Shown piece by piece: positions 10,987 through 62,782 of a DNA stretch of 64,000 bases. The notes under the pieces were generated by a model. The model was not told the DNA's origin. It worked only from the letters and a program-made list of their open reading frames with translations, and did not search any database. The translations under genes and the position numbers were made by a program. Origin of the DNA: Dissulfuribacterales bacterium. Lineage in GTDB: Bacteria > Desulfobacterota > Dissulfuribacteria > Dissulfuribacterales > DYLC01. Where the stretch lies: NCBI GenBank assembly GCA_041287365.1, contig JBEULL010000018.1, forward strand, positions 240,908 through 304,907, in the 5' to 3' direction. Within the stretch, counting starts at the first letter, position 1, and every line of letters begins with the position of its first letter.

Positions 10987-10993
10987 TTACAGG

Positions 10994-11308: not shown

Positions 11309-11343
11309 TGTGCTCATAAAAAATCATTTAGGTATATAATAAT

Positions 11344-18048: not shown

Positions 18049-18136
18049 TGTGATTCCCCTATAAAAATTGATGGTATCGTAAAAAGTAGAGTATGGCTGC
18101 GGCAAAAACGCCGAATGCAAGGTGCACAAATTAATT

Positions 18137-21889: not shown

Positions 21890-23266
21890 CTATCCTATAG
21901 GCTCATACCAGAATGGCAGCAAAATGATGTAAGTGGCGCCCATGCCATAGACCAGGAGTTCGCACAGCCTGTGCCTGAGCGGGCTGACAAGCCCATAAAA
22001 ATCCCCATATACCAGCCGGTGCAGCACATGAAGGCCTGCCACCACACTGCTTATAACCAGAAACAGGTCCATGCCAGGATAAAACCAGGAAGGCACATGA
22101 AATTCCCAATGCGAGAGGTCAAATCCAAACTGTCTGCCCAAAGTCGGAAAAAAGAACTGAGACTCGTATACTGCATAGTTCAGACGACAGACCAGTTCGC
22201 CGGCAAAGGCCGTGGGTACGAACACCGGCACCATGGGAGAGAATTTGCCGAAGAGTTCGTCTTCTGTAGTGCCAAAGATGCGCGCCCCAAGTTTCAAAAA
22301 CAGCATGGCAATCACGAACCAGAAAAACAGCAGGGCGGAAAACATGAGCATTCTATACACCAGGGTCTCCGTTGCAGGCGTAAATGCCTTGAGAAGGCCA
22401 TAATCCATAAAACGAGCCAGCTGTGAGGCTATCAGCAGGGGGATGATATAAGAACAGGTGATGTAGCGACCTTTACTCGTAATCAACTCGGCAAACGGGC
22501 TTCTGAAATTGATACGTGGGGAATTTTTGTCACATAACGACACGCATCGACCGCAGATGAGGCAATCCAGGTTATTGACCACACCAAATGCGCCCAGATA
22601 CACAGGGCATCCACGCTGTCCGTCCCTACCCTTCTTGCATGCAAAGGTCTTGCATTCTCTGCAGATGTTGTGGTCAGGCCTGAACTCCGTCATGGACATG
22701 GTGGAGGCCACGCCTGTGATGCGTCCCATGGGGCAGAGATAGCGGCACCAGGCCTGAAGCGGGTACAATATGGAAAAAAACGTGGCGCCTCCCAAAATGG
22801 CCAGAATCAGCAAGGCCGTGGCTCGAGGAGACTCCTTTATGCCCATACTCTCTTCCAGCCAGATAATGACGGCAAACAAAAAGACCGCCCAATATATACC
22901 GTATTTTTGCAGCCAACTGGGAATAGGCCTGTATTTAACCCAGCCCAGACGCTGAAAGACCCTTCCAAGCCCGGGGAAAGGACAGAAACCACACCACATG
23001 CGCCCCACAAAAAACCAGCTCAAGACCATGCTGGGCCACCATAGACCCCATGAGAGAAAAATGACCACATTTTCTCGAGGATTTTGAGGGCCGAACAGAC
23101 CTGCCAGGATAATGAAGGCAAAGACCAGGTCGCCCACTGTCCTAATGGAGGCATGCAGTTTTCTGCGTTGCAGAACATGCTTGACGGCAGGAAAGACCTG
23201 AAACAGATTCATGCGCTCATTGGGATATTGATCGAAAAATATGCCTATAACACGCTTGAGTTGCAT
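21890..23266 (-). CDS. polytopic membrane 4Fe-4S-binding protein (NapH/MauN-like N-terminal half plus additional C-terminal TM helices)
   Basis: Multiple hydrophobic helices with the Cys motifs CGFCPFPG, CRYLCPMG, CRECKTFAC...CPV and CLICGRCVSLC. Start probably MQLKR at 23266. The stop lies only 2 nt from the convergent ftsY stop. Confidence 0.65.
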   Translation of the reverse strand: MQLKRVIGIFFDQYPNERMNLFQVFPAVKHVLQRRKLHASIRTVGDLVFAFIILAGLFGPQNPRENVVIFLSWGLWWPSMVLSWFFVGRMWCGFCPFPGLGRVFQRLGWVKYRPIPSWLQKYGIYWAVFLFAVIIWLEESMGIKESPRATALLILAILGGATFFSILYPLQAWCRYLCPMGRITGVASTMSMTEFRPDHNICRECKTFACKKGRDGQRGCPVYLGAFGVVNNLDCLICGRCVSLCDKNSPRINFRSPFAELITSKGRYITCSYIIPLLIASQLARFMDYGLLKAFTPATETLVYRMLMFSALLFFWFVIAMLFLKLGARIFGTTEDELFGKFSPMVPVFVPTAFAGELVCRLNYAVYESQFFFPTLGRQFGFDLSHWEFHVPSWFYPGMDLFLVISSVVAGLHVLHRLVYGDFYGLVSPLRHRLCELLVYGMGATYIILLPFWYEPIG

Positions 23267-23491
23267 CTTTCCCGCCCTGTTATCTATTGAAAATTCAAAA
23301 AAGTATAAATAAAATTCGTTCAATCAGGCTGTTCACACTTTTTGTGATTTTAAGCATAAACACCAAAACTTGTCCAGAAAATTTATCGAACGCAAAACTG
23401 AAGCAATGGCGATTTAACCTAAGCTTCAATTGACTTTTTGGGTTTTTGTAATAATAACGAACTTATTTCAAAAACAATAAACGGAATCAAT

Positions 23492-31857: not shown

Positions 31858-33213
31858 TCATTTTCCACGCCACCTCATCTTCTCCAGTTGAGTGGAAAGA
31901 AAATCGATCTCAGCCTTTAATTTCCCGCCGTCTTTAATAATTTGCTGCACCTGTTTGACCGCATGTATAACCGTGGCATGGTCCCTGCCGAATGTCTTGC
32001 CTATTATCTCGAGGGATTCACATGTATATTGCCTGGCCAGATACATGCCCAACTGCCGCGGCCACAGCACGCTTCTCTTTCTGCTTTTGGATGTGAGTTC
32101 AGCCGTAGTCAGTTTATAAAAACGACACAACATCTCCTGAATGGCCTGAATATTCAGGTCAAGGGGCTGCCCCACCATATCTCCAAGCACCTCCTGTGCC
32201 AATTGAAGCGTGACCTCTTGTTTCATCAAGGTGGTGCGAGTCAAAAGCCCCGCCACAGCCCCTTCCAGCCGCCTCACATCCCCGAACAGGCGTTCAGCCA
32301 GATAATCCAGCACAATGTCAGGCACAACAAGACCGTTTCTCAATGCCTTTACCGCCAATATGTTGCGTCTTGTTTGCTGATCGGGCTCATCTATATTGGC
32401 CATTATGGCGGCATTGAGACGGGAGCCCAGCCCTTCATGTAGATTTGCAAGCTGTACCGGAGGCTGATTGGCGGTCATGACAATGGTCTTTCCGCTCTCC
32501 ATGAGTGTGTCTATTATCAGAGACAGTTCTGCCTGCGTGCGCTGCCTTCCAGAGAGGCAATGCACCTCTTCCAATAACAGGATATCGCATTCCTGCTGAT
32601 ATTTCTGCTTAAAACCATCGAATTGTCCGTCCTTTGCAGCCCGCACCACCTGATTGGTCAATTCATTGGCGGAAAGATAGGCTATGCGCATGGACGGCCT
32701 GTTTTCAAGAATAAACTGGCCGGTAGCCTGAGACAGATGGCTTTTGCCAAGACCTGAAGGCGAATGCAGATACAGTATGTGTCCCTGGCTTATTTCACCG
32801 CTTGCAATGGCCTTGCAGACGTCATGGGCATATCTGTTACATTCTCCGACCACGAATTCATCGAATGAATAATGTCTGCTGAAACGCAGGGCCGCAGGTT
32901 TTCTGGGGTTGAAATCCGGTAAGATGGCCTGCTGTGCTTGATTTTCCGGCTGTTTCAGGAATGCCTCCGCAGAATTTTCCTTTTTATAATCACAGGTCAG
33001 ACGGATCATACGATTTTCGAGCTCAGGGCAGCGAGAGAGCAGAGGCAGATAGTGTTCCTGCACCCACGAGGCGAAAAAACGGTTGGGACATCCGAGAATC
33101 AGGGTGTCTTCCTTTACGTCCACTACCTGTATAGGTTCTATCCAGACCTCGAAGCTGCTTTCAGAAACATGGGAACGCAGATAGTCCTTGACAGTATTCC
33201 AGACACTCTTCAT
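31858..33213 (-). CDS. dnaA: chromosomal replication initiator protein DnaA
   Basis: N-terminus W..VKDYL...FEVWIEPI. AAA+ core with YSFDEFVVGECNRYAH, Walker A SPSGLGKSHL and LLLEEVH. Domain IV with FGRDHATVIHAVKQV. Confidence 0.9.
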   Translation of the reverse strand: MKSVWNTVKDYLRSHVSESSFEVWIEPIQVVDVKEDTLILGCPNRFFASWVQEHYLPLLSRCPELENRMIRLTCDYKKENSAEAFLKQPENQAQQAILPDFNPRKPAALRFSRHYSFDEFVVGECNRYAHDVCKAIASGEISQGHILYLHSPSGLGKSHLSQATGQFILENRPSMRIAYLSANELTNQVVRAAKDGQFDGFKQKYQQECDILLLEEVHCLSGRQRTQAELSLIIDTLMESGKTIVMTANQPPVQLANLHEGLGSRLNAAIMANIDEPDQQTRRNILAVKALRNGLVVPDIVLDYLAERLFGDVRRLEGAVAGLLTRTTLMKQEVTLQLAQEVLGDMVGQPLDLNIQAIQEMLCRFYKLTTAELTSKSRKRSVLWPRQLGMYLARQYTCESLEIIGKTFGRDHATVIHAVKQVQQIIKDGGKLKAEIDFLSTQLEKMRWRGK

Positions 33214-33530
33214 ATAGATATCTCTCCCATTTTCAAAACTTCCCTAAACGGCGTTCGCCGTCAGCATGAAGTCACTATGTCTTATTCAAAAATGATGCTT
33301 CAGATTCATACAAGACCGTCACTTAACTGTCAAACAATGGTGCTTGTTATAAAATCACTTATCAGAAAAAAAGAAACAGCACTGCAGAATAGGACATAAC
33401 GATTTGTTTTATTTAGCTATTTGAAATAGATTTTGATAACTTCCTAAAATCCAAGCCTTTTTTGTTAACAAAAAATCAAATAAATCAAGTTAGTTACAAT
33501 AGCATAATTTTTGGACAAGTTTTCAACATT

Positions 33531-33550
33531 CTATTTTCTCCTATTTTCTC
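33531..33550. repeat. tandem 10-mer CTATTTTCTC x2 inside the AT-rich dnaA-upstream spacer
   Basis: Read directly from the sequence. It is followed by ATTTTTTT. Confidence 0.6.
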
Positions 33551-33666
33551 ATTTTTTTGAAGTTTTTCTAGTTGTTATGTCTTAGCTCATTATTATTTTG
33601 CCCGTCTTTTAAAAACTCTTGCAAAACCCCTCTGTTATTTTCAAAGGGCCTTGCTATGATATAAAC

Positions 33667-37117: not shown

Positions 37118-37188
37118 ACACAATATTTGTTTGACTATATGTGGTGTCTTTGATATCTTAAATTTCAGGATATATTTGGAGACAAAAG

Positions 37189-37278
37189 ATGAAATCCATC
37201 GGATTGTTATACATATTTCTCTTTTTACTCTACACCGGCATTGAAGCAGTCGAGTCCAGGGATATCCACCTTACATAG
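37189..37278 (+). CDS. possible 29-aa hydrophobic micro-ORF (MKSIGLLYIFLFLLYTGIEAVESRDIHLT)
   Basis: ATG with GGAG about 9 nt upstream and one predicted TM-like stretch. There is no other support. Confidence 0.2.
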   Translation: MKSIGLLYIFLFLLYTGIEAVESRDIHLT

Positions 37279-37500
37279 GAGGATAGAGACCACCCTTACA
37301 GCGGCAGTAATAGGTTTAGCTTACTGGGACAGATGCACTATCATCAGAAAGGCGCGAATACGGCTGTATGCTAAATAGAAGACAAATGGCGGCTAAACGA
37401 GCTCGTAAAAGCGCTAAGGCACTTGCCCCGCAGCGCTAAGGCCTTGCAGCCCTGCTGAAGACATTTCATATACGTTAACTGCACTATACCAAAACACTCA

Positions 37501-38844
37501 ATGGAAGAGATTCGACTTGTACATATAGGTGACTGCCAAGTCACTAAAGACCCTGATACCATACTCGAGACATGTCTTGGCTCGTGTGTAGGCATAGCCA
37601 TATACGACGCAGTCAGGCGTGTCGGCGGCATGTGCCACATTCTGCTGCCTGATGGCCCTGCTGAAAAGAAACATGCCAATCCCACCGCCTATGCCACTAC
37701 AGCGGTTCCATTCCTGCTGAACGCCTTTGAAGAGCTGGGAGGCGAGAGAAAAACAGCCGTCACTGCCATTGCGGGCGGCGCATCCATAATGACAAAGCAT
37801 TCAGGCGCAGACCTCAAGATAGGTCAGCGGAATCTGCTCGCTGTAATGGAAGGCCTGAGACATGCAGGTATCAAGATTTCATATGAACACGTGGCAGGTA
37901 ATCTGGGGCGTGTGATGCGCCTGTATATGCGAAACGGCCAGATTCACGTTCGCACATCCAGAATGCCCACACCAGAAGAGGCAGGGAGGCAGATAAATGA
38001 AAAATGGAATGCCAACGCCTTGTGCGCCTCAATCCTGCAGGGCGCTGAAGACATCAGGCCCAGTTCCAATGTGGCCATTCGCGCCCTTCAACTCGCCAAT
38101 GGCGAGGACACCAGCATTATTGAACTGGAACAGCTCATTCTTCATGACCAGGTGCTGGCTGCCAACATACTCAAGGAGGCCAATTCCGCCTACTACGGAC
38201 TTTCCAGACAGGTACATACCATCTCTCAGGCCATCGCATACCTTGGCATGAGGACCTTCAAAAAAATAGTTATGGATACATGTCTTGCTGACATGTACGC
38301 CAGGTGTATAAATACCTATGATATGGAAGAAGGGGCGTTTTTCTATCACTCCGTTACATGTGCCCGCATAAGCGAGACTATAGCCAAAGTAACGGGTCGC
38401 GTGGAGCCGGAGACAGCGTATCTGGCCGGTCTGCTGCATGACATCGGCAAGATCGTGATCGAACGTTACGGTACAGATCTGTTCACACAGGTTACGAGCA
38501 GGGTGCTGTTGAAAAACGAATCCTTCGTGCAGGCCGAAAAAGACGTGTTCGGCCTGGACCATGCGGCCATAGGCCAGTATATCGCTCGAAACTGGCAACT
38601 TCCGATGGCACTGGAGGAGGCGATAGCATTTCATCATGAGCCCGAAAACATGAATGTAATCTCACCTCTTCCCTGTATAGTTCATATCGCTGACCACATC
38701 TGCAATATAGCCGGAATAGGACTTTCCAACGATTCCATGATCAACGGACTGAGCCAAAGGGCCATCACAGCCCTGGCCCTTGATGAAGGGGCGATAGAGG
38801 ACATCCTTTCCGCTGTCCCGCGCATAATCCATGCACACTCATAA
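37501..38844 (+). CDS. cheD: CheD (chemoreceptor glutamine deamidase) fused to a C-terminal HDOD domain
   Basis: Residues 1-~155 are CheD-like (VHIGDCQVTKDPDTILETCLGSCVGIAIYD, VGGMCHILLPDG, with catalytic Cys and His contexts). Residues ~190-447 are HDOD-like (LHDQVLAANILKEANSAYYG, AIAYLG, GLLHDIGKIVI, AFHHEP). Confidence 0.8.
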   Translation: MEEIRLVHIGDCQVTKDPDTILETCLGSCVGIAIYDAVRRVGGMCHILLPDGPAEKKHANPTAYATTAVPFLLNAFEELGGERKTAVTAIAGGASIMTKHSGADLKIGQRNLLAVMEGLRHAGIKISYEHVAGNLGRVMRLYMRNGQIHVRTSRMPTPEEAGRQINEKWNANALCASILQGAEDIRPSSNVAIRALQLANGEDTSIIELEQLILHDQVLAANILKEANSAYYGLSRQVHTISQAIAYLGMRTFKKIVMDTCLADMYARCINTYDMEEGAFFYHSVTCARISETIAKVTGRVEPETAYLAGLLHDIGKIVIERYGTDLFTQVTSRVLLKNESFVQAEKDVFGLDHAAIGQYIARNWQLPMALEEAIAFHHEPENMNVISPLPCIVHIADHICNIAGIGLSNDSMINGLSQRAITALALDEGAIEDILSAVPRIIHAHS

Positions 38845-38849
38845 CGGAC

Positions 38850-39713
38850 ATGGAACCTGATCGCATCAATCATCTTAAACATCTTGTAGAACAACGCACG
38901 GGTTGCAGGTTTTCCAGCTACAATCCAGGGACATTTCAAAGAAGGCTTTTGCGGCGCATGTCCGCCCTCGGCATACACGACATAGACGCTTACGAGGCCT
39001 ATTTGCAAAAAAATCCTTCTGAATACCAGACACTTCTTCACTCCCTCACCATAAAGGTCAGCGAATTTTTCAGGGACACCGAGATTTTCAATCACATCGA
39101 ACAGCATATCATACCTGAAATCTTTGAAAGACACGCCCAGCAAAACGATCGCAACATCCGTATCTGGAGCACTGCCTGCGCCTATGGAGAGGAGGTGTAT
39201 TCCACAGCCATTCTGCTCTTTGAATACCTTCAGCGTATGGAGGAGCAGGAAAGAAAAAAATGGAATATCACACTACTGGGCACGGATATAGACCAAATGG
39301 CCGTAGAAAAGGCCAGGGAAGCCGTTTATAACATCAAATCCATGGAAGATGTTATCTCAGCACACCCAAACGCCTTTCAGCGCATCATCGGTATGCCTGA
39401 ACACATACAGGTCATTCCAGAGATTCAGGCCATGGCGCAGTTTGTATGTTTCGATATCACCACAGTGAAATATCTTGCACCACCCGTCGGCATCTTCACC
39501 GAGTACGACATCATCTATTGCAGAAACGTGCTCATCTATTATGATTATCAGCAGAAATTCGATACACTGCACAGACTTTATGAATGCCTGAATCCAGACG
39601 GTTATCTGGTGCTGGGGAAAGCGGAAAGCATGCCGGATGAACTTTTGAAATGCCTTGTCCCTGTGAAACATGGAATAAAAATCTATAAAAAAGGATTGGC
39701 TGCACATGGATAA
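38850..39713 (+). CDS. cheR: CheR-type protein-glutamate O-methyltransferase
   Basis: N-terminal helical domain (FQRRLLRRM, TIKVSEFFRD) and SAM-binding domain (IRIWSTACAYGEEVYS, DIIYCRNVLIYY). Starts 5 nt after cheD-HDOD. Confidence 0.85.
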   Translation: MEPDRINHLKHLVEQRTGCRFSSYNPGTFQRRLLRRMSALGIHDIDAYEAYLQKNPSEYQTLLHSLTIKVSEFFRDTEIFNHIEQHIIPEIFERHAQQNDRNIRIWSTACAYGEEVYSTAILLFEYLQRMEEQERKKWNITLLGTDIDQMAVEKAREAVYNIKSMEDVISAHPNAFQRIIGMPEHIQVIPEIQAMAQFVCFDITTVKYLAPPVGIFTEYDIIYCRNVLIYYDYQQKFDTLHRLYECLNPDGYLVLGKAESMPDELLKCLVPVKHGIKIYKKGLAAHG

Positions 39714-42525
39714 CAGCCCATTTCAGATATACGACGACCATGTTCTTGCCTATGAAGCGGTTTATCAGCTCTACATGCGCGCACCCACACCCATTCGCAT
39801 GATGGACATAAACTGTCATGTGCTCACTCAGAATCCTGCCATGGATGCCATGGTGGATATGAGCAATCCGGAAAGCCTTGGTAAAAAATGTTTTGAGATC
39901 ACTCATGCAGCGGGCTTATGCCACACGGAAAACTGCCCTCTTCGGCAGATAGCCTGCGGAGAGAACAAAAATCTCCTTTTGTTCTATGAATGTGAACTCT
40001 GGAATGGAACACAATTTCCGGCCAGAGTCATTTCATCGCCCTTCTACGATCAGAACGGCCATCTGGCTGGCATAGTGCAGACCATTCAAGACGACAGCCA
40101 TTATGTGGCCATGGCAAACGCCCTTGAACGAAAAAATCAGGAACTGGCCGCCAACTATCAGACACTGGAAAATCACTATAAGATCATAAGGCTTCTTCAC
40201 GAGGCCAATGAACTTTCAGAAATGGCACAGCGGCTTTTAACTATTCTCATCGAAAATACATCATCTGCAACGGGTGTGTTTTATATATGGAACCATAAGC
40301 GTGAAGTTCTGACCCCTCTGGCCTCTTACGCCTTATTCACAAATCCGCCTGAATTTAGCATGGGCCAGGGCATGCCAGGTCAGGCCGCCCAGTCAAAACA
40401 CACCCTTCTGCTGCAGAATCTGCCGGCTGACCATCTCAAGCTGAAAACCGGCGCCATGGATGCACAGCCATTCTCCATCATCTGTATTCCAATGTTTCTG
40501 CAGGACAAACTACTGGGAGTAATGGAGCTGGGCTCCTTCAACGACCTCTCCCTTCATAAGGACTATCTGGAAAACATACTGCCTCAGACCTGTCTTGCCA
40601 TTCAGAACGCCCTTAACACACAGGAGATTCTTCAACTCTCCAACACCATGAAGCAGCAAAACGAACAACTGAACGCCCAGAACGAGGAATTGCAGGCGCA
40701 GAGCGAAGAACTGCTGGCGCAAAGCGAAGAGATTCAGGCCCAGACAGAGGAACTCATGGCTCAGAGGGACGCCCTGGAAAAGAAGACCAAGGAGGCCGAA
40801 GAGGCCAATCGCATGAAGTCTATATTTCTCTCCAACATGTCCCACGAGCTGCGCACACCTCTCAATTCCATTCTCGGTCTGGCTCGTCTCATGCTGGACG
40901 ACTATCAGGTCACGCAGGACCAGCGTCACAAGGAATACCTGAATATCATACTCAGAAACGGCGAAAATCTGCTGGAGCTTATAAACGATATCCTGGACCT
41001 CACACGCATCGAATCAGGTAGAGAAGAGATGCGCTTCACTCCGGTCAAAACCAGAGACCTCATAGAAAAGCTGGGGCTTTCCATGGCTCCATTGGCCCAG
41101 AAAAAGGAACTCGCCTTTGAAATACAGACGGACGAAGCGCCTGAAACCATCGTGACAGACCAGCGGAGGCTCAACCAAATACTGACAAATCTCCTGGGGA
41201 ATGCCGTCAAATTCACGGAAAAAGGCAAAATAACCCTGAAATGCACGAAAAAAACAGCGGAAGATAGGGATTATATCGTCTTTTCGGTGATAGATACAGG
41301 CATAGGCATTCCCAAGGGATATGAAAAACTCATCTTCGAGCCCTTCAAACAGGTGGACGGATCATATACACGCAAATACGGCGGAACAGGACTCGGACTG
41401 AGCATATCACAGAAACTGGCTCAGATGCTGGGAGGTGAGATATCCGTCTTCAGTGAACTGGGCAAAGGCAGCAGCTTTACACTCACACTGCCTGTGGACA
41501 GACGCAGCAAGAACAGATTGCCCGACGAGGTCTGGAAAAAACGACTGAAGGCAGCCCTGCTGCCCAATATAAACAAATCGTCTGCAACACCTTCCACCAC
41601 TCCTGATACTACGAATGCAACAAAGGCAACGACTGCTCCAATCCCTTCTGGAGCGGACGTTTCATCTCTGCAGACTGCAAAAACCACTGAACGGCCTGTA
41701 ACATCGGCCATCACAAAGGACACGAACGGCCAAAGAATCTTACTGGTGGACGATGATATGCTGGTACTGAAGGAATTGGGGACTCGGCTCAAGTCATACG
41801 GCTATGAGGTATCCTATGCATTTGACGGCAATCTGGGGCTGAAACTCCTTTTGGATGAAAAACCAGGGCTTGTCCTGCTAGATCTTACCATGCCGGTCAT
41901 GGACGGATTTTCGTTCCTGCACGAGATGCAGAAACTGCCGGATGTATCTGAAATCCCTGTGATAATCCTGAGTGCGGCGGACATAGACAGTGATATGGAA
42001 AAACTGTTTCCGCCAAACGTCAAGGGTGTTTTGCAAAAAGGCAACATAAAGAGTCAGGAACTCATGACCTTCCTACAGAATACATTGTGCAGCGATGAAA
42101 AGCAGACAGAGGCGAACAAATCAGCCGATGATCCGGTAACGACTGACTGCAAACAAAACAGTAAAAAGATATTGATCGCTGAAGACAATCCAGACAATAT
42201 GTTTTTATTAAAAGAACTCTTGACGCCAAGAGGTTATATGGTGTTACATGCCGTAAACGGCAATGAGGCGGTGCAGATGGCTATGACTCAGCGGCCTGAT
42301 CTCATTCTCATGGACATTCAAATGCCGGAACTGAATGGACTGGACGCCACAAAGGCCATAAGAGAAAACGGCCTCAAGACCCCCATTATCGCCCTGACGG
42401 CAAAGGCCATGAAGGGCGACCGTGAACAGATTATAGAGGCCGGGTGTAATGATTATATATCCAAACCATTCACTCCAAATTCTCTTCTGCGCACTATCAG
42501 TTACTGGTTGAACCTAGAGCAATAA
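39706..42525 (+). CDS. hybrid sensor histidine kinase: Cys-rich PAS, GAF, heptad-repeat coiled coil, HisKA, HATPase, T/S/P-rich linker and two receivers
   Basis: H-box [11 protein letters not shown] boxes [26 protein letters not shown]1 LLVDDDM...DLTMPVMDG and REC2 [10 protein letters not shown]...[10 protein letters not shown]...LTAKA. Its ATG overlaps the cheR stop by 8 nt. Confidence 0.85.
40675..40764 (+). repeat. in-frame 21-nt periodic coding repeat (heptads AQNEELQ / AQSEELL / AQSEEIQ / AQTEELM / AQ)
   Basis: The units gcccagaacgaggaattgcag, gcgcagagcgaagaactgctg, gcgcaaagcgaagagattcag and gcccagacagaggaactcatg were read directly. Codon 324 of the kinase starts at 40675. Confidence 0.9.
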
Positions 42526-42541
42526 AAACACAGGACAAGAA

Positions 42542-43744
42542 ATGGAAAGTATTCTTACACCCTCGCTATCTAATATCAATACCGCCCAAAAGCGCCCCTG
42601 TATTCTGGTGGTGGAAGACCAACCGGACAATCTGTTTATTCTAAAAGAGGTGCTGGAACGCGGCAACTTTCAGGTCATAACAGCGAGAACCGGCGAAGAG
42701 GCCCTGGAAAAGATTCGCAATTCACGCGAAGAGATAGATCTCGTACTCTCCGACATCATGATGCCAGGCATCTCCGGCATAATGCTCTGCGAGACCATCA
42801 AGACGGATGTTGCCTCATCCCATATACCGGTGATGCTCATCACGTCCCTTTGTCTGGACGAAAAAGACGAAATCAAAGGCCGTGAGGCAGGCGCGGAGGA
42901 TTATCTTACCCGTCCCATCAACCCTGATCTGCTGCTTAAACGCATCAAGCGAATCCTGGAAACCAAAAAGACTATAGACTTCTGGAAGGGGGCCTATGAA
43001 GAAAAGGATCAGGCCCTGACCTCTCAGGAATGGAGCACCCGCATGCTAATCCATGACCTCAAAAACCCGCTTACAGGTGCAAGCGGTTATCTGACCCTTC
43101 TGGCCATGGACCCTGACATCACACCCAAACAGCGCAATCTCATTCAGAAGATACAGGTGGCATTACAACAGCAGACGGAGATGCTTCAGGACATGCTTTC
43201 CCTGGCCGCAGCCAAATTCGGCAGGCTCAGCCTGGAAAAGGAAACCTTTTCCCTTTGTGATGTATTGAAGGAAAACGTCTTTATGCAGCAAGGAGCGGCC
43301 ATGCAAAAGGGCATGGCCCTGCACACAGAGATATCGAAAGGCGCATGTATGGTCAAGGCGGACCGCAGACTCATAAAACGCGTCATAGCCAATCTGATCA
43401 TGAATTCCATCAAATATGGAGAACCGAACACTCCCATAGAGATACATCTGGGCGAGCAAAATGACAATCCATTCCTGCGGCGCCTGCCAGCGAACGATCA
43501 TATCTGGTTCAGCATCTCCAATGAGGCGCCTGTAATATCTCAAGAAGATCAGAGACGTATCTTCAAGCCCTTTGAACAGCAGCATGCCGGATCCGAGCAA
43601 AAATACGGACTCAAGGGCGCCGGCCTTGGCCTATGTTTCTGCCATGAGATCATAAAACTCCACGACGGCGAATTAGGCGTCATTTCACCTGTTCCAGGCC
43701 GGGACTCGGGCGTGGTCTTTTATTTCAGCCTTCCAAGGACATAA
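42542..43744 (+). CDS. response-regulator / histidine-kinase fusion (N-terminal REC, HisKA, HATPase)
   Basis: REC (ILVVEDQPDN...SDIMMPGISG...TS). H-box-like IHDLKNPLT. ATPase region (NLIMNSIKYG, GAGLGLCF). Confidence 0.8.
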   Translation: MESILTPSLSNINTAQKRPCILVVEDQPDNLFILKEVLERGNFQVITARTGEEALEKIRNSREEIDLVLSDIMMPGISGIMLCETIKTDVASSHIPVMLITSLCLDEKDEIKGREAGAEDYLTRPINPDLLLKRIKRILETKKTIDFWKGAYEEKDQALTSQEWSTRMLIHDLKNPLTGASGYLTLLAMDPDITPKQRNLIQKIQVALQQQTEMLQDMLSLAAAKFGRLSLEKETFSLCDVLKENVFMQQGAAMQKGMALHTEISKGACMVKADRRLIKRVIANLIMNSIKYGEPNTPIEIHLGEQNDNPFLRRLPANDHIWFSISNEAPVISQEDQRRIFKPFEQQHAGSEQKYGLKGAGLGLCFCHEIIKLHDGELGVISPVPGRDSGVVFYFSLPRT

Positions 43745-43759
43745 TTCCTCAACCCATCA

Positions 43760-45106
43760 GTGATGCTCAAAAGCCGGTTCAACCCATCCCAGATACTACT
43801 GTTGGGCTTTACAACCATCATCGGAGTAGGTGCCATTCTTCTTAAATTGCCGATTTCCACTCGACACGGTATCTCAACTGTGGATGCCCTTTTTACTGCA
43901 ACCTCTGCTGTCTGTGTCACTGGACTTATAGTCAAGAACACGCCTGTAGACTTCACTCTGTTTGGCCAGATAGTGATACTGCTGCTCATTCAGATAGGCG
44001 GCCTCGGATACATGACCTCCACCACCCTGATTTTTTTGATGATGGGAAAGAAAATCGACATCAAAGACCGTTTTCTCCTAAAGGAATCCATGAATCTCAT
44101 AAGCATGGAAGGCGTGGTCAAATTCGTAAAGCATGTGCTGACCGTTACCTTAATCATAGAACTTCGTGTACTTCTACTCTCTTTTTGCTTTCTACCCTAC
44201 ATGCCTTGGCGAAAAGCAGTTTATTACGGCCTATTCCATTCCATATCCGCCTTCAACAACGCCGGATTCAGCCTATTTCCCGACAATTTAATGAAATTCA
44301 AAACAAGTATGAGCATAAATCTGATTATCTCGCTGCTCATCATTGCAGGTGGAATAGGCTTTTTAGTGCTATGGGAACTCAAAAACAGATGGAATCTTCG
44401 AGCAAAGGACAGAGAACTGCTCTCCATGCACGCCAAAACCGTTTTGGGCACCACCGGCCTGCTGATTCTCGCCGGCGCTGTGCTGATTCTGCTTTTCGAA
44501 CGCAATAATCCAGACTCCATGGCCGGCCTTTCTCTGCCGTATCAATTTCTTGCCGCATTTTTTGCTTCAATTACGGCGCGAACCGCTGGTTTCAACACAT
44601 TGGACTATGCCTCCCTTACACCGGAGACTCTATTTCTCACCATAGTTCTTATGTTCATAGGCGCCTCTCCTGGTGGCACAGGTGGAGGTGTCAAGACCAC
44701 CACTATTGCCGTGGTGCTGACAAGCATGTTCGCCACCATTCGAGGAGAGGAACAGACAGTACTCTTCAAAAGGGCTGTTCCTTCAAGTGTTATCTCAAAA
44801 TCCATGCTTATAGTGGTACTGGGGGCCATCTTTGTAATCGTTGCATCTATCTTGATTCTGCACTTTGAAAACAGCCGCTACCTTTCCATTCTCTTTGAAG
44901 TGACATCGGCCATAGGCACTGTGGGACTTTCCGTGGGGGATGGAGGTGTGCGCAGCCTTTCGGCCACATTTTCTCCACTTGGAAAAATGATAATCTCATT
45001 TATCATGCTTGCAGGTAGAATCGGACCCTTGACACTTGCATGCGCCTTTTTTGAACAAAAAGGCAAACGATATCGATATCCGAAAGGAAGGATTGCCATA
45101 GGATGA
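43760..45106 (+). CDS. TrkH/KtrB-family potassium transporter membrane subunit
   Basis: Polytopic protein with repeated selectivity-filter-like motifs (TGL, IGGLG, NAGF, TAGF, GGTGGG, GTVGLS). Starts 15 nt after the REC-kinase gene. Confidence 0.85.
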   Translation: MMLKSRFNPSQILLLGFTTIIGVGAILLKLPISTRHGISTVDALFTATSAVCVTGLIVKNTPVDFTLFGQIVILLLIQIGGLGYMTSTTLIFLMMGKKIDIKDRFLLKESMNLISMEGVVKFVKHVLTVTLIIELRVLLLSFCFLPYMPWRKAVYYGLFHSISAFNNAGFSLFPDNLMKFKTSMSINLIISLLIIAGGIGFLVLWELKNRWNLRAKDRELLSMHAKTVLGTTGLLILAGAVLILLFERNNPDSMAGLSLPYQFLAAFFASITARTAGFNTLDYASLTPETLFLTIVLMFIGASPGGTGGGVKTTTIAVVLTSMFATIRGEEQTVLFKRAVPSSVISKSMLIVVLGAIFVIVASILILHFENSRYLSILFEVTSAIGTVGLSVGDGGVRSLSATFSPLGKMIISFIMLAGRIGPLTLACAFFEQKGKRYRYPKGRIAIG

Positions 45107-45771
45107 AAAAACAATACGCAGTCATCGGGTTGGGGCGTTTCGGTTATTCCGTTGCAAAGACCCTGACAGAACTCGGTGAAGACGTGATTGCCATAGACAA
45201 CAACGAGGAGCGAGTGCGAAAGATAGCCGATTTTGTAACCGAATCGGTGGTGATGGACGCCCTGGATGAAAAGGCATTGCGCTCCATCGGTTTACAGAAC
45301 GTGGATGTGGCCGTAGTCAGCATCGGTGAAAATATAGAGGCCAGCATTTTAGTAGTAATGATTCTCAAGGAGATGGGTGTGCAAAACATCATAGCCAAGG
45401 CGGTCACATCCCTGCATGGCAAGGTGCTCGAAAATTTGAACGTAACTCGCATCGTATATCCTGAAAGAGACATGGCCGTGCGTGTAGCACAGCAACTGGC
45501 CAGGCCCACCATTTTGGAACACTTGGAACTTTCTCCTGAATACAGTATCATCGAGATTCCAGCCCCTTCCTTTGTAGCCGGCCGCATGCTGAGAGACACT
45601 GGGCTGCGCAACAAATATGGCATAAACCTCATAGCGATTCGTCGCAGGAAATCAGAGACTGGCCTCACTGAATGGAATGTCAATCCGGCGCCAACAGACA
45701 TCATTCAACCTGAGGACATTCTGGTGGTCATAGGCTCCAATACCGATCTGGAGCGGCTGAACAACGCCTGA
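45103..45771 (+). CDS. TrkA/KtrA-family K+ uptake regulatory subunit (RCK N- and C-domains)
   Basis: Rossmann motif VIGLGRFG followed by a TrkA-C-like C-terminus. ATGA overlap with the membrane subunit gene. Confidence 0.85.
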   Translation: MKKQYAVIGLGRFGYSVAKTLTELGEDVIAIDNNEERVRKIADFVTESVVMDALDEKALRSIGLQNVDVAVVSIGENIEASILVVMILKEMGVQNIIAKAVTSLHGKVLENLNVTRIVYPERDMAVRVAQQLARPTILEHLELSPEYSIIEIPAPSFVAGRMLRDTGLRNKYGINLIAIRRRKSETGLTEWNVNPAPTDIIQPEDILVVIGSNTDLERLNNA

Positions 45772-50614: not shown

Positions 50615-51535
50615 ATGGATTCCACAATAAAATCCGATACAAACACTTGGTTCAGACTCATAGACGACTTTATAGCCCATCTTCGCATTGAAAAAGGGCT
50701 TTCCGGCAATACCAGTGAGGCCTACGCCACAGACTTGAACTTCTTTGTAACTTATGTGACGGATATCGGCATTTACGAACCGGCTGAACTCACACTCACA
50801 GCCATCCTCTCTTGGCTCGTCAGGCAAAAGACGCAAGGCATGCACGCCCGCACCATCTCCAGACGTCTCTCCAGTCTGAGGTCATTTTTCAATTTTCTAC
50901 GTCTTGAACGCATAGTCACATCCAATCCAGTCACCACCATTCAAAATCCGAAGATAGGCCTGTATCTACCGGATGTCCTGAGCGTGGAAGAGGTGGAAAG
51001 GCTTCTGAACGCACCGAATACCAATACTCACCTCGGCATGCGTGACAGGGCTATTCTGGAACTCACCTATGCCTGCGGTCTTCGGGCATCCGAGGCCGTA
51101 ACTTTGAAACTCCATCAGATAGACATGAATTTGGCCTACCTACGCGTCATAGGAAAAGGAAACAAGGAGAGGGTCACCCCCATTGGGGATGTGGCCGTTG
51201 AGATATTGAAGGAATATCTACTGAAGGCCAGACCGCAATTTCTAAGGACAGCGGGCAGTGAATTCCTGTTTCCCAGCCGGAACGGACGGCCTCTCACCCG
51301 CCAGCGCTTCTGGCAGATATTAAAGACTCATGCGTTACAGGCAGGGCTGAAGTCTGAGCTATCCCCTCACTCCCTTCGCCACTCCTTTGCCACGCACCTG
51401 CTGGAAGGCGGGGCCGATCTGCGCGTTGTGCAGATGCTTTTGGGCCATTCCAGCATCACCACCACACAGATATACACACATCTCGACCTGCAACACCTGC
51501 GTGAGGTGCACAAGCGATTCCATCCCAGGGCATAG
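50615..51535 (+). CDS. xerD: tyrosine recombinase XerD/XerC family (XerD-like)
   Basis: N-terminal SAM-like domain (FIAHLRIEKGLSGNTSEAYATDL) and catalytic region (RDRAILELTYACGLRASE, HSLRHSFATHLLEGGADLRVVQMLLGHSSITTTQIYTH). Confidence 0.85.
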   Translation: MDSTIKSDTNTWFRLIDDFIAHLRIEKGLSGNTSEAYATDLNFFVTYVTDIGIYEPAELTLTAILSWLVRQKTQGMHARTISRRLSSLRSFFNFLRLERIVTSNPVTTIQNPKIGLYLPDVLSVEEVERLLNAPNTNTHLGMRDRAILELTYACGLRASEAVTLKLHQIDMNLAYLRVIGKGNKERVTPIGDVAVEILKEYLLKARPQFLRTAGSEFLFPSRNGRPLTRQRFWQILKTHALQAGLKSELSPHSLRHSFATHLLEGGADLRVVQMLLGHSSITTTQIYTHLDLQHLREVHKRFHPRA

Positions 51536-52164
51536 AGAAGCCCTCGAAGGGCACAGGACTTCTGTGGTTCGAATGGTTCGGGTTCAATGCAGGCAGCGCA
51601 TTGGCCGCAAACGGGCTGGCTGGAATGGCCTTCTTAAACACCAATACAGCCGCTGCGGCAGCCGCCCTGGCCTGGATGGCTATGGACTGGCTCTTCTATA
51701 AAAAATGCACTGTGCTGGGCATGGCCTCCGGCGCTGTGGCAGGGTTGGTGGGCATCACGCCTGCGGCAGGTTTTGTTGACATAGCCGGAGCCTTTATAAT
51801 CGGCATAGCGGTAGGCGTGATTCCGTTTCTGATAATCGCAAAGATCAAACCACGACTTGGCTATGACGACACACTGGATGCCTTTGGCATACACGGTGTG
51901 GCAGGTTTTATGGGAGCGATACTGACGAGCATTTTGGCTAATCCAGCCATAAACCAGGCAGGTAAGGGTGTAATATACGGAAATGGTAGTCAATTTCTTA
52001 CACAATTTCTTGCAGCAGGCGCGACTTTTGTGTATTCTGGCATAGCAACCCTAGTCATACTGGTAATTATAAAAGCGACCATTGGCATTCGAGTGGAAAA
52101 CGAAGAGGAGATCAAGGGGCTTGACGAGACACAGCACGGCAAAACCGCCTATTTTTTCCTCTAA
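51536..52164 (+). pseudogene. amt: ammonium transporter (Amt) gene remnant: C-terminal half only
   Basis: The reading frame is open from the base after the xerD stop. It reads ...KGTGLLWFEWFGFNAGSALAANG..., which is a mid-protein Amt signature. It continues through DDTLDAFGIHGVAGFMGAIL to a normal Amt C-terminus. About 200 N-terminal residues are absent. The first in-frame start is TTG 51601. Confidence 0.75.
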
Positions 52165-52191
52165 AGTAAAATTACAAAGACATGAGGCATC

Positions 52192-52530
52192 ATGAGAAAG
52201 ATAGAAGCGATTCTAAAACCATCCAGATTCGAGCAGGTAAAGGACGCCCTGAACAAAATAGGCGTAAAGGGCATGACAGTATCGGAAGTAAAGGGCTATG
52301 GCAGACAAAAAGGTCACAAAGAGGTCTATCGCGGCACTGAATATGTAGTTGATTTGATTCCGAAGATCAAGATTGAGATTGTAGCCGAGGCTGCACAGAT
52401 TCCCATGATTATCGATACGATCATCGCAGAGGCCAATACAGGCACCATAGGCGATGGCAAAATATTCGTTATGCCCATAGAAGATGTAATAAGGGTGAGA
52501 ACAAAGGAACGCGGTAAAGAGGCTATATAG
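52192..52530 (+). CDS. glnK: P-II nitrogen regulatory protein (GlnK type, Amt-linked)
   Basis: 112 aa: MRKIEAILKPSRFEQVKDAL...GVKGMTVSEVKGYGRQKGH (T-loop Tyr context)...TGTIGDGKIFV. Confidence 0.9.
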   Translation: MRKIEAILKPSRFEQVKDALNKIGVKGMTVSEVKGYGRQKGHKEVYRGTEYVVDLIPKIKIEIVAEAAQIPMIIDTIIAEANTGTIGDGKIFVMPIEDVIRVRTKERGKEAI

Positions 52531-52561
52531 TGCAATTCGCAACGATAAATTAACATTGATT

Positions 52562-52601
52562 CAATAGCGTATTCATATCAGACATGAATACGCTATTTTT
52601 T
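52562..52601 (+). terminator. intrinsic terminator after glnK
   Basis: 14-bp perfect stem AATAGCGTATTCAT / ATGAATACGCTATT with a 7-nt loop, then a T-run (TTTTTTT). Confidence 0.8.
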
Positions 52602-52624
52602 TGAATTGACAACAGACAGATATT

Positions 52625-54586
52625 ATGAAAAATCTACAACTCAGCACAAGATTCGCACTTATAACAGGTGGAATATGCGGTTTATTCTATCTATTATTCG
52701 TATTGTTGAGCTATAATTATTTAAAAGAACAAACCCTTCGCGTGGGATCAGAAAAGGCACATATCATTCTCGATATCATGAACGGCATCGATGCCTATAT
52801 CAATCAGACTCTAAGGCCAAAAATTATGAACCTGATGCCTGACATACAAGAAAATCCACATGCATTCATTCCGGAGATACTTTCCACCACTAAAATCAAA
52901 AACATAGTACTCGAAAAGGCTAAACTCGAAAATTTTCAATTCACATATAAAAGGATGTCTATAAATCCACGCAACAAGGATAATGGATTAAGTGAATTAT
53001 ATGCCGAAATACTGACAGTATTTCAAAAAAATCGAGAGATGAATGAATGGCAGGGCATAAAATCCATAGATAAACATAGATTTTTTATCCTTGCGAAACC
53101 GATCTATATAAAAGAAAATTGTTTAAGATGTCATGGCGATGCAAATCAAGCGCCTGTCGGACTTATTGCAAAATATGGAAGTGAAGCCGGATTCAGGTTC
53201 AAGACAAATGATTTGATGGGTCTGGAAGCGGTTTCCATTTCCATGGATGTAATATGGAATGAAATCATTCAGACAACCATAAATATCTGTACAATAGGCA
53301 TTATAATAATAGTTCTGTTGTTCATAGCTATTGAAGGTGGTTTTATCAGACTTGTAGGACATCCACTGAAAAAAATAGCCCAACACTTTACTAATATCAG
53401 TCAAAATATGTTGTTAGACACAGCAACCTTAAAAGTAAAGAAACATGATGAAATAGGCGAATTGATACAATCATTCAATCTAATGATAGAAAATCTCAAA
53501 CAAGCCTATGAAAACATCAAATCAAATGCAACAATTTTACAGACTATAATCAATGGAATAAGTGATCCACTTGCACTGATAGGGAAAGATTGCAATATGA
53601 TAGCCGCAAATAACACATATCAGGAATGGATATCCAAAAACAAAAAAATAGTGTTAAATACCATAGAAAAAGAACAACAAAATTGCAATTCAGAAACAAT
53701 AACATGCCAAAAAATCAAAAGACTATTAAACAATAAAGAAGAAATTATTGAAGAGTATAAAACAGAAAATGATGAATATTATTTAATACATTTATATCCA
53801 ATCAAAAACAACCAAAATGAAGTCATAAAAATAGTACATTATATTCAGGATATAACGAAACAAAAAAGATTGGAATTACAGATGGCACATGCTGAAAAAA
53901 TGGCAACAATCGGCCAGATGGCGGCAGGATTTGCTCATGAAATCAACAATCCATTGAGTATAATCCAGTGTTATACAAAATTATTGATCAAGAAATTTCT
54001 AAACGATCAGGAAACAATAAACGATCTCAAAATAATAGAGAAACATATCAATTCATCAAAAAATATAGTGGAAAATCTATTATATTTTTCAAGACACAAA
54101 AAAACAATTTACGAACAAATTAATATAAACAACATTATATTCGAAACCATTTCAATAACTAAAATACAATTCGAAAAGAAAAACATCATTATCACAAAAA
54201 GATTTCAAGAAAATCTTCCGATGATTTACGGCGACCGTGAAAAGCTGAAACAGGTGTTGCTCAACATTCTACTCAACGCGGAACAGGCCATCTCAAGTCA
54301 TGGCGAGATCACCATCACAACCGGTTTCGATGAAAACCGGAACGATGTGTATATCTCAATAAAAGACACTGGCTGCGGCATTTCAGCGCAGCACCTGAAT
54401 CATGTGTTCGAACCATTCTTCACCACAAAGCCACCCGGTGAAGGGACGGGGCTTGGACTTTTCGTGTCCTATGGTATCATTCGCGAACACAAGGGAGATA
54501 TCCTTCTAAAGAGCACAGAAGGTCAAGGGACGGAGATATTCATCACACTACCCGGCCTATTATATGAAAACCAAACTGACGTATGA
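52625..54586 (+). CDS. sensor histidine kinase with a periplasmic CxxCH (DUF3365/Tll0287-like, putative c-type haem) domain, HAMP, PAS, HisKA and HATPase
   Basis: TM1 at residues ~10-30, CLRCH at residues 166-170 (nt 53120-53134) and TM2 at ~215-240. HAMP-like (HDEIGELIQSFNLMIENL). H-box FAHEINNPL. N/G boxes LLLNAEQA, DTGCGI, GTGLGL. Confidence 0.85.
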   Translation: MKNLQLSTRFALITGGICGLFYLLFVLLSYNYLKEQTLRVGSEKAHIILDIMNGIDAYINQTLRPKIMNLMPDIQENPHAFIPEILSTTKIKNIVLEKAKLENFQFTYKRMSINPRNKDNGLSELYAEILTVFQKNREMNEWQGIKSIDKHRFFILAKPIYIKENCLRCHGDANQAPVGLIAKYGSEAGFRFKTNDLMGLEAVSISMDVIWNEIIQTTINICTIGIIIIVLLFIAIEGGFIRLVGHPLKKIAQHFTNISQNMLLDTATLKVKKHDEIGELIQSFNLMIENLKQAYENIKSNATILQTIINGISDPLALIGKDCNMIAANNTYQEWISKNKKIVLNTIEKEQQNCNSETITCQKIKRLLNNKEEIIEEYKTENDEYYLIHLYPIKNNQNEVIKIVHYIQDITKQKRLELQMAHAEKMATIGQMAAGFAHEINNPLSIIQCYTKLLIKKFLNDQETINDLKIIEKHINSSKNIVENLLYFSRHKKTIYEQININNIIFETISITKIQFEKKNIIITKRFQENLPMIYGDREKLKQVLLNILLNAEQAISSHGEITITTGFDENRNDVYISIKDTGCGISAQHLNHVFEPFFTTKPPGEGTGLGLFVSYGIIREHKGDILLKSTEGQGTEIFITLPGLLYENQTDV

Positions 54587-61154: not shown

Positions 61155-61604
61155 TCAGGCGCATTTTTCCTTCTGACACTCAGAATTCAGGGGATACTGT
61201 ACTGGATAACTATTGGGATCCAAAACCACCTGCATGCCCAGCCGCTTTTCTGTATTGATCACCACAGGGCCCAGCAGATTAGCCGTGATGCATTTTGGGT
61301 TGTCCTTTGGAATGGTTACAATGAGCAATGTCTCGGCCTGTTCAGCAGTTGTCATTTCCAGTTCCTCCTGAACATTATCGGGTATATCGAACACGTAGTC
61401 GGCCAGACACACAGAAGGGGTGATGGCCACAAATGCCAGTTCAGGCATGTCCACGCTCTGCAACCAGAAAAAAGGAGAATCTTGTCTGTGCGGAATGAGC
61501 ACATAACGCTTCTGTTCAGGGAAACCAAGTATACCGTGTTTGAACAGAATGATGTCCTGGTCAGTGATATCGAGTGTGCCAAAACGCATTGTTTCTAGTT
61601 TCAT
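61155..61604 (-). CDS. fliW: flagellar assembly factor FliW
   Basis: MKLETMRFGTLDITDQDIILFKHGILGFPE...FFWLQS. AAGGAGG SD upstream of ATG 61604. The track start at 61661 would overlap csrA. Confidence 0.85.
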   Translation of the reverse strand: MKLETMRFGTLDITDQDIILFKHGILGFPEQKRYVLIPHRQDSPFFWLQSVDMPELAFVAITPSVCLADYVFDIPDNVQEELEMTTAEQAETLLIVTIPKDNPKCITANLLGPVVINTEKRLGMQVVLDPNSYPVQYPLNSECQKEKCA

Positions 61605-61605
61605 T

Positions 61606-61839
61606 TCATTCCTCCTTTGTGGAAACGATGGCATCCAATGCCTGAATATCCGCTGGGGCATCGGCCGCCAATCTGTTCTGTTCCTGAATACGAAGATAAA
61701 TCTCGTGTCTCAAAATAGATGTATTGGATGGAGCGATTATTCCCAACTTCACCTGGTTGTTTCGAATCTCCAGCACCTTGATCTCTATGTCATCACCTAT
61801 GCAAATCTTTTCCTCTACCTTTCGTGTCAATATCAGCAT
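61606..61839 (-). CDS. csrA: carbon storage regulator CsrA (FliW-partnered type)
   Basis: [37 protein letters not shown]...ILRHEIY. Confidence 0.9.
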
Positions 61840-61866
61840 GGCAGCCTCCCTGCTTCCATTATGGTC

Positions 61867-62766: not shown

Positions 62767-62782
62767 GTTAATTCACCTCCTG

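Follow-up and report, generated by a model that had tools for sequence, protein, structure and literature searches.

A CheR methyltransferase and a CheD-HDOD fusion protein, encoded beside a hybrid histidine kinase in a Dissulfuribacterales bacterium, probably tune that kinase by methylation, a reading that has strong comparative-genomic support and to which we assign a probability of roughly 0.55. The genes belong to a four-gene cassette at positions 37,501 to 43,744 of a 64,000-nucleotide stretch of DNA (the window; GenBank assembly GCA_041287365.1, contig JBEULL010000018.1, positions 240,908 to 304,907 of the forward strand). Sensory adaptation through reversible methylation of glutamates is commonly seen as a hallmark of chemoreceptor arrays, a form of memory that classical two-component kinases are believed to lack. 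An initial annotation of the window, made from its sequence, proposed that modification enzymes act here on a two-component kinase, and named the adjacent hybrid kinase as their most plausible substrate. This choice of substrate is supported, because heptads bearing Glu-Glu pairs are conserved in the kinase, stand in register with the phospho-accepting His of its DHp helix, and co-occur with CheR far beyond chance across metagenomes. The comparative evidence likewise favors the wider proposal, except for the coupling to K+ uptake that was attached to it. The elements of the cassette are as follows.

37501-38844 (+): CheD-HDOD fusion, 447 amino acids (aa), with CheD at about aa 1-155 and HDOD/HD at about aa 175-445 (Pfam)
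38850-39713 (+): CheR-type S-adenosylmethionine-dependent protein-glutamate methyltransferase, 287 aa, with CheR_N and CheR domains (Pfam)
39706-42525 (+): hybrid sensor kinase, 939 aa, with a Cys-containing PAS-like N-terminus, GAF, heptad coil, HisKA, HATPase_c, REC and REC
40675-40761 (+): four-heptad array of the hybrid kinase (aa 324-352), the proposed methyl-accepting sites (regular-expression match)
40843-40845 (+): codon of the phospho-accepting His380, in the H-box HELRTPLN
42542-43744 (+): REC-HisKA-HATPase_c kinase (hereafter the REC-kinase), 400 aa, the fourth cassette gene (Pfam)

Together with two K+ uptake genes that follow, these make six open reading frames (ORFs), all co-directional. 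The CheD-HDOD and cheR genes are 5 nucleotides (nt) apart, cheR and the hybrid kinase gene overlap by 8 nt, 16 nt separate the two kinase genes, and trkH follows after 15 nt and overlaps trkA by 4 nt. When checked by ORF analysis and Pfam, the cassette agreed with its initial annotation in coordinates, in gaps and overlaps, and in domains. The 8-nt overlap joins the end of cheR to the start of the kinase gene, and is counted as evidence that the two are coupled.

Pfam annotation of the hybrid kinase gives a weak PAS match followed by GAF, HisKA (73 bits), HATPase_c (107 bits) and two REC domains, with no match to the signaling domain of methyl-accepting chemotaxis proteins (MCPs; PF00015). Its start is conserved in L192 and L193 (L numbers denote the loci used for comparison), and the REC motifs LLDLTMP and LMDIQMP, like H380 within HELRTPLN, were read from the sequence. 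A regular expression for the chemoreceptor methylation consensus, [ASTG]xx[EQ][EQ]xx[ASTG], matches four times in tandem, at aa 324, 331, 338 and 345, placing Glu pairs at E327/E328, E334/E335, E341/E342 and E348/E349; His380 lies 53 residues past the motif anchor (the E327-E328 pair, in the first core heptad). Every cassette kinase adjoining CheR has 3 to 5 tandem heptads of the form AQxEE[LI]x in the same place and with the same spacing to the H-box. In control DNA (1.06 Mb, 1,788 ORFs), three or more tandem heptads were found only in cassette kinases and in one genuine MCP methylation helix (L028). The REC-kinase has no consensus heptad array, with at most one single match in the locus checked (L003). 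A homology search with kinase aa 1-372 returned only distant GAF matches and missed the orthologues, and was left out of the statistics.

Two further features of the kinases were seen. A Cys triad, C62-x9-C72-x4-C77 (KKC.EI...C.T..CP), is conserved in the PAS-like domain of the hybrid kinase (aa 1-170, 39706-40215); orthologues with as little as 37% identity (L192, L193, L003) retain it, and its role may be in sensing, by way of a metal, an Fe-S cluster or redox chemistry. In the receiver of the REC-kinase (42542-42950), the window clade has Arg (YLTRP, YITRP, YISRP) in place of the conserved Lys of the 'KP' motif, which is present in L189 and L190 (FISKP).

Metagenomes were scanned for DNA encoding EE[LI]QAQxEE[LI]xAQ, yielding 120 loci, 115 of them with a motif-bearing ORF, and the loci were then searched with hidden Markov models built from CheR, CheB, CheD and HDOD sequences already collected. 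CheR was present at 36 of the 115 motif loci, always on the same strand and usually centered about 1.75 kb upstream of the motif, and at 12 of the 24 motif loci in which 3 kb or more flank the motif on either side. Among loci with such flanks, the count was 11/17 for an H-box no more than 130 aa from the motif and 1/4 for one lying more than 130 aa away. CheB is added at L079 and L091, CheD-HDOD at L110, L125 and L166, and L158 holds a long ORF in which CheB and CheR domains are fused. The distance from motif to His is congruent to 4 modulo 7 in all 58 kinases with an H-box within 130 aa (32, 39, 46, 53 and so on up to 116), and the heptad array therefore appears to form a continuous coiled coil with the DHp helix, changing in length by whole heptads, a geometry in which charge neutralization would be expected to bias kinase output. 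Nine CheR-linked kinases annotated with Pfam all have a GAF-coil-HisKA-HATPase core, preceded by HAMP, CHASE3 or no N-terminal sensor; because their REC number varies from 0 to 3 (L180 has none), the element they have in common is the GAF-coil-DHp core and not REC.

A cassette survey seeded on CheD-HDOD, and independent of the coil, places the four genes together in about ten lineages, down to 34% identity and with unrelated flanking genes in each. By CheD-HDOD identity these include L192 (87%), L193 (66%), L003 (44%), L190 (39%) and L189 (38%), with L005 (35%), L010 (34%), L110 and L125 at 34-36%; L110, L125, L166 and L100/L104 came from the coil-seeded scan, and L100/L104 have the permuted order CheR-kinase-CheD-HDOD. 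A scan of genome contigs seeded on a generic HD motif gave 59 loci, mostly plain HDOD, and yielded L010 and the split CheD/HDOD operons described below. A REC-kinase (REC-HK or REC-HisKA) lies downstream of the hybrid kinase in all cassettes whose downstream region was recovered, and neither CheA nor CheW was found in the window cassette or in the other cassettes examined. Since conservation extends over about ten lineages with different flanks, the four genes are supported as a conserved functional unit, a self-contained signaling cassette, and the co-occurrence of CheD-HDOD, CheR and a heptad-bearing kinase away from CheA and CheW, for which a neighborhood survey had been suggested, is borne out.

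Further proteins with a HisKA domain are also encoded in related cassettes, either as tiny HisKA-only ORFs (78-82 aa) or as REC-HisKA proteins without an ATPase domain. They may be Spo0B/ChpT-like phosphotransfer proteins or kinase modulators, and are located as follows.

L189, 13447-13683: HisKA-only or REC-HisKA ORF
L190, 13955-14203: HisKA-only or REC-HisKA ORF
L005, 16260-16889: HisKA-only or REC-HisKA ORF
L125, 10231-10893: HisKA-only or REC-HisKA ORF

Both domains of the CheD-HDOD fusion were identified by Pfam (CheD, PF03975, 79.4 bits vs a cut-off of 25, E 2.7e-22; HDOD, PF08668, 178 bits vs a cut-off of 22.9, E 1.9e-52; HD, E 2.5e-16) and by Foldseek searches with an AlphaFold 2 model (pLDDT 79.9, pTM 0.79), in which the CheD fold matches 2f9z_C (TM 0.87, root-mean-square deviation 1.9 Å) and the HDOD fold matches 3hc1, 3p3q and 1vqr. 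The best PDB match of HDOD by sequence is likewise 3hc1 (E 8.8e-33), and the pTM of the model suggests a fixed arrangement between the two domains. C29 and H46 of CheD are invariant across 29 family members and align with LGSC and H.MLP of 2f9z_C (T. maritima), in which we take the catalytic Cys-His dyad to be Cys27 and His44. In HDOD, the ligand residues H283, H313, D314, H354 and H378 are invariant and H379 is near-invariant (at least 90%); its HD, H and HH motifs align with 3hc1, predicting a complete di-metal site of five His and one Asp. This set binds two iron ions in 3HC1, and most of the di-metal ligand residues have been lost in the HDOD adaptor protein SadB (PMC12075610).

CheD-HDOD fusions gave 565 matches at E <= 1e-5, the best 120 of which all have both domains, mainly in Thermodesulfobacteriota. 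A literature search found no paper covering both CheD and HDOD, in agreement with the suggestion that a CheD-HDOD version would be a distinct architecture. CheD (~160 aa) and HDOD (~285 aa) occur as separate, overlapping genes in the che operons of L015 (CheA-CheW-CheR-CheD-HDOD-CheY...CheB) and L034 (CheA-CheW-MCP-x-x-CheR-CheB-CheD-HDOD-CheX), and a similar arrangement was found by tblastn in L020 and L028. The fusion therefore joins two established neighbors, and their proximity in real chemosensory operons points to HDOD as a partner of CheD in function.

Other occurrences of these domains were recorded. L007 (CheD-HDOD at 10001-11353) and L191 (8001-9368) carry the fusion in a conserved pyrF(-) / CheD-HDOD / selA / TPR / hemC context without CheR or a kinase. 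In L008 (10001-11976) a stand-alone CheD-HDOD gene converges on another CheD gene, whose product has that domain alone (188 aa). In L040 (562-2240, a Chthoniobacter contig) CheR lies directly upstream of a plain HDOD without a CheD domain, which hints at a wider CheR-HDOD link. The window itself holds a second, stand-alone HDOD/HD protein (309 aa) at 17200-18129 (-).

The CheR protein matches CheR_N (PF03705, 50.4 bits, E 1.8e-13) and CheR (PF01739, 133.8 bits, E 6.6e-39; cut-offs 27), and aligns over its full length, aa 9-262, to Salmonella CheR (1bc5/1af7, E 2.4e-29). The CheR_N domain, at aa 8-56, is included only with the start at 38850; a gene call made automatically elsewhere placed the start later. 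Both modification enzymes are divergent, because both score well below the NCBIfam equivalog cut-offs for chemotaxis enzymes: CheR reaches 120.6 bits against NF007902 (cut-off 435), and the best CheD match, NF010015, reaches 118.5 bits (cut-off 251). The Thermotoga CheD equivalog carries the NCBIfam name 'deamidase/methylesterase'. In a neighbor-joining tree of 40 CheRs, built without bootstrap support and with only 4-5 canonical che-operon sequences, kinase-linked CheRs including that of the window form one clade with the che-operon CheRs outside it, and sub-clades follow operon architecture (cassette, CheR-upstream, and CHASE3/CheR-downstream).

In the proposed mechanism, a soluble GAF-type hybrid histidine kinase would take the place of the chemosensory MCP-CheW-CheA complex. 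The helix from GAF to DHp would be a continuous coiled coil with at least four solvent-exposed Glu-Glu pairs at one-heptad spacing, in the sequence context that CheR recognizes on chemoreceptors. Methylation of coil glutamates by CheR would neutralize charge on the signaling helix and shift the balance of kinase and phosphatase activities. CheD, a predicted Cys-His hydrolase, would remove the modification as a methylesterase or act on the abundant glutamines of the coil, where each heptad has two conserved Gln at positions 2 and 7. The fused HDOD may dock or gate CheD, a role like that of CheC for CheD or of the REC domain for CheB, and with a di-iron HDOD, erasure could become dependent on redox state or metal. 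The two REC domains of the modified kinase would then pass the signal to the REC-kinase, from which it would reach an unlinked regulator, whose counterpart in relatives would be an operon-encoded sigma54 activator or HTH_17 regulator. From these comparisons we infer that the coil is the substrate and that CheD acts as an esterase, as well as the direction in which the kinase is affected and the part played by HDOD. Because the pairs are almost always encoded as Glu, deamidation of canonical sites is a less likely function of CheD here than ester hydrolysis or regulation. A precedent for methylation of a non-MCP two-component protein by CheR is PhoP of Salmonella (PMC8546571).

Several observations weigh against methylation of the kinase. 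A literature search found no report of CheR methylating any histidine kinase. Core Glu pairs in the cassettes are EE in 31/33 cases and almost never contain Gln, with a genuine EQ at a core heptad site in L010 only, and this leaves little obvious substrate for a deamidase at canonical positions. The third catalytic residue of T. maritima CheD, presumably Thr21, aligns to Glu23 with Thr24 adjacent; the cassette clade reads LET.LGSC, and a stand-alone clade has A at the position equivalent to Thr21. Distant CheD-HDOD fusions (~30% identity) stand alone without CheR or a kinase, and the small sample of che-operon CheRs and the missing bootstrap values limit what the tree can carry. HAMP-coil-PAS kinases (L071, L085, L092, L095, L096, L111, L130, L142, L174 and others, with AQQEELQ heptads) have the same heptad motif with long flanks and no CheR nearby (for example L071/L095/L130); their heptads lie about 330 aa from the H-box, out of heptad register, and the family would be a useful negative control for the methylation hypothesis. 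Heptad composition was tried as a discriminator of CheR-linked and unlinked coils and dropped, as it did not differ. Because the motif occurs without CheR and with the same composition, the coil alone is not diagnostic and may be mainly structural. Variation between E and Q, including the NEQL heptad of the window, was also rejected as a deamidation signature: orthologues have K, R or L there, and EQ frequency is similar in coils with and without CheR.

Some of these points, together with the surroundings of the cassette, would fit CheR and CheD-HDOD being ordinary adaptation enzymes whose targets, in trans, are MCPs such as those of the PilJ type, and which are merely co-located or co-expressed with a two-component system. 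The only MCP in the window does lie about 15 kb away on the other strand, as initially annotated (58507-60966, -; 14.8 kb downstream); this 819-aa PilJ-HAMP-MCPsignal-CZB-hemerythrin protein has one consensus methylation site (SATEEQTA) and is encoded directly downstream of FliW, flagellin-like and FlgK-like genes (61155-63961, -), and the organism appears to be flagellated. A PilJ-type MCP 39% identical to it is convergent to, and adjoins, the L190 cassette. Given the flagellar genes and MCP in the window and the homologous MCP at L190, 'receptor-free' operation of the module is unproven, and action in trans also draws on the split CheD and HDOD genes of genuine che operons and on coils that occur without CheR. 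The synteny is nonetheless with the kinase and not with an MCP, which is adjacent in one of about ten cassette lineages; the kinase-linked CheR clade is distinct from che-operon CheRs, the cheR stop overlaps the kinase start, and CheR lies on the same strand at half or more of the coil-bearing kinases with 3 kb flanks. Furthermore, tblastn with canonical queries over the 64 kb found no CheA, CheW, CheB methylesterase or CheX, upholding the initial statement for CheA, CheW and CheB (no dedicated CheC query was made), and no CheC appeared among Pfam-annotated neighbors, although no search was aimed at it. We consider action on MCPs in trans unlikely. It is rather improbable that the enzymes modify another component of the relay, for instance paired acidic residues of the REC-kinase or of any one of the three REC domains: CheR of Salmonella does methylate consecutive acidic residues of PhoP (PMC8546571), and cassettes always contain several REC domains, but the CheR-linked GAF-coil kinase of L180 has no REC domain, the REC-kinase lacks the motif, and what all CheR-linked kinases share is GAF-coil-DHp with heptads in fixed register. 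A purely structural Q/E heptad coil, with the CheR-like and CheD-HDOD proteins serving as non-enzymatic binding partners, adaptors or small-molecule/metal sensors, would account for the uniform coil composition and the few Gln at canonical sites, and SadB, with its HDOD, works as an adaptor without ligand binding (PMC12075610). This too seems a poor fit, since the whole family keeps the catalytic Cys and His of CheD and the full set of HDOD metal ligands without variation, CheR can be aligned along its entire length with structures of active CheR, and a conserved consensus matching the known substrate of these enzymes is hard to explain otherwise.

Control of K+ uptake was the remaining alternative for the output of the module, through co-transcription with, or control of, the two genes that follow the cassette. 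These genes and the region upstream of the cassette are as follows.

43760-45106 (+): TrkH/KtrB-like K+ uptake gene (Pfam, TIGR00933), outside the conserved cassette
45103-45771 (+): TrkA/KtrA-like K+ uptake gene (Pfam TrkA_N and TrkA_C), outside the conserved cassette
37118-37500 (+): upstream intergenic region, 383 nt, presumed to hold the cassette promoter

Both calls are supported by score (TIGR00933, 367 bits vs a cut-off of 331; TrkA_N, 96.6 bits; TrkA_C, 50.9 bits). Terminator-like sites occur at chance level (15 found vs 12.4 expected) and none falls in an intergenic gap, consistent with the earlier remark that no terminator is visible before these genes, and with the 15-nt gap between the REC-kinase and trkH this would permit co-transcription. 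The same arrangement is kept in L166 and in the 87%-identity relative L192, where, as in the window, the Trk genes and valyl-tRNA synthetase (ValRS) follow the cassette; these are the only cases, all at 87% identity or above. Because the whole dnaA-to-valS neighborhood is syntenic in L192, the Trk linkage carries no functional information. In L193 (66%) the Trk genes are gone and the cassette is followed by an opposite-strand glycosidase, and Trk is absent from all other cassettes too, so the proposed coupling to K+ uptake is not supported. Other cassettes hold a REC-HisKA protein and an NtrC-type sigma54 activator (L010, L110, L125) or are preceded by an HTH_17-REC regulator (L125, L189, L190). 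As the cassettes beyond the Trk relatives carry these sigma54-type or HTH_17 regulators, their gene content points to a phosphorelay to transcription, not K+ transport, as the conserved output, and K+ uptake as the physiological output is very unlikely. The upstream region contains one weak sigma70-like site (37131-37159); no sigma54 consensus was found upstream of the cassette within 2 mismatches, and a search there for riboswitches and other Rfam families gave one sub-threshold chance match only (U6, 16.6 bits vs a gathering score of 44).

Compared with canonical adaptation in E. coli, B. subtilis and T. maritima, the module uses the same families (CheR_N with CheR, and CheD with a Cys-His dyad), the same substrate consensus on an exposed coiled-coil face with exact heptad spacing, and a CheD and HDOD gene pair that is also found in real che operons (L015, L034). 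The methylation sites of Tar, which we take to be 295/302/309, have this exact heptad spacing. It differs in that the candidate substrate in the window is a HisKA-type hybrid kinase without PF00015, CheA and CheW are missing from cassette and window, CheD is fused to HDOD and CheR belongs to a separate clade. The cassette would work like a chemosensory adaptation module yet lacks the MCP domain, CheA and CheW by which a Che pathway is recognized.

In the T. maritima (2F9Z) and B. subtilis CheC-CheD systems, CheD likewise has a dedicated partner controlling substrate access, for which HDOD, as an obligatory neighbor or fusion partner, would be the counterpart here; HDOD is, however, an all-helical di-metal domain of the HD superfamily, unrelated to CheC. 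CheB-CheR-PAS-histidine kinase fusions are an uncharacterized architecture. That CheB-CheR fusions and CheR/CheB-linked GAF-coil kinases exist, as the initial annotation stated in part, is confirmed by L158 (fused) and by L079 and L091; like those fusions, the coil-motif locus L158 has its modifying enzymes joined in a long ORF, whereas the window enzymes are separate proteins and use CheD-HDOD rather than CheB. CheR1 of P. putida reportedly affects biofilm rather than chemotaxis.

The closest described system, as far as it is presented in the citing source, is the BmsA cluster of Pseudomonas alkylphenolica, in which cheR, cheB and the gene of a second hybrid kinase adjoin that of a CHASE3/GAF hybrid kinase, and which is linked to biofilm formation and motility (Lee et al., 2016, cited in PMC8175716). 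L079 and L091 have a related order, CHASE3-GAF-coil-HK-RECx3, then CheR, then CheB, with the same heptad coil in the same register. Like BmsA as there described, the window links a GAF-coil-HisKA hybrid kinase to CheR, a putative demethylating enzyme and a second kinase; unlike it, the sensor is Cys-containing and PAS-like (with no CHASE3 match), the order is CheD-HDOD, CheR, kinase instead of kinase, CheR, CheB, and CheD-HDOD takes the place of CheB (with no CheB_methylest match). In that account only a biofilm and motility phenotype is reported, and no sign of a test for kinase methylation was found. As in Salmonella, where CheR modifies PhoP at consecutive acidic residues (PMC8546571), the predicted substrate is a two-component protein; there, however, it is a response regulator modified by a housekeeping chemotaxis CheR, with no dedicated operon and no heptad array. 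What would be new here, on the evidence of gene content and sequence, is that a GAF-coil histidine kinase has become the target of CheR-type adaptation and that CheD fused to HDOD stands where CheB would be.

Elsewhere in the window, dnaA (31858-33213, -) and an intergenic region (33214-33618) lie about 4 kb upstream of the cassette, and from the position of dnaA the chromosomal origin is probably nearby. A XerC/D-like integrase (50615-51535) precedes a truncated ammonium-transporter fragment (51601-52164) that covers only the C-terminal half of the Pfam model, and GC content dips sharply to 0.353 in 52001-54000 (vs ~0.49), overlapping the beginning of a Tll0287-HAMP-PAS kinase that has a sigma54 regulator as its partner; the region 50615-54586 may be an insertion scar. 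The 477-aa ORF at 21890-23323 (-) has no Pfam match at E <= 1e-4.

If methylation of the kinase is confirmed, chemotaxis-style adaptation would extend to transcriptional two-component signaling without a chemoreceptor array. Tentatively, the cassette may represent a widespread and unrecognized class of 'methyl-accepting histidine kinases', GAF-coil-HisKA sensors in which 2-9 Glu-Glu heptads continuous with the phospho-accepting helix provide a covalent memory or set the gain, with a dedicated CheR lineage as writer and CheB or CheD-HDOD as eraser. The window offers a defined substrate for tests, namely the four specified Glu-Glu pairs of a helix that is in register with His380, along with a dedicated enzyme pair, and a broad family for such testing includes genetically tractable Pseudomonas relatives (the BmsA cluster). 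For HDOD, a poorly understood domain, CheD is a concrete genomic partner both in che operons and in the cassette, and a new lead on its function.

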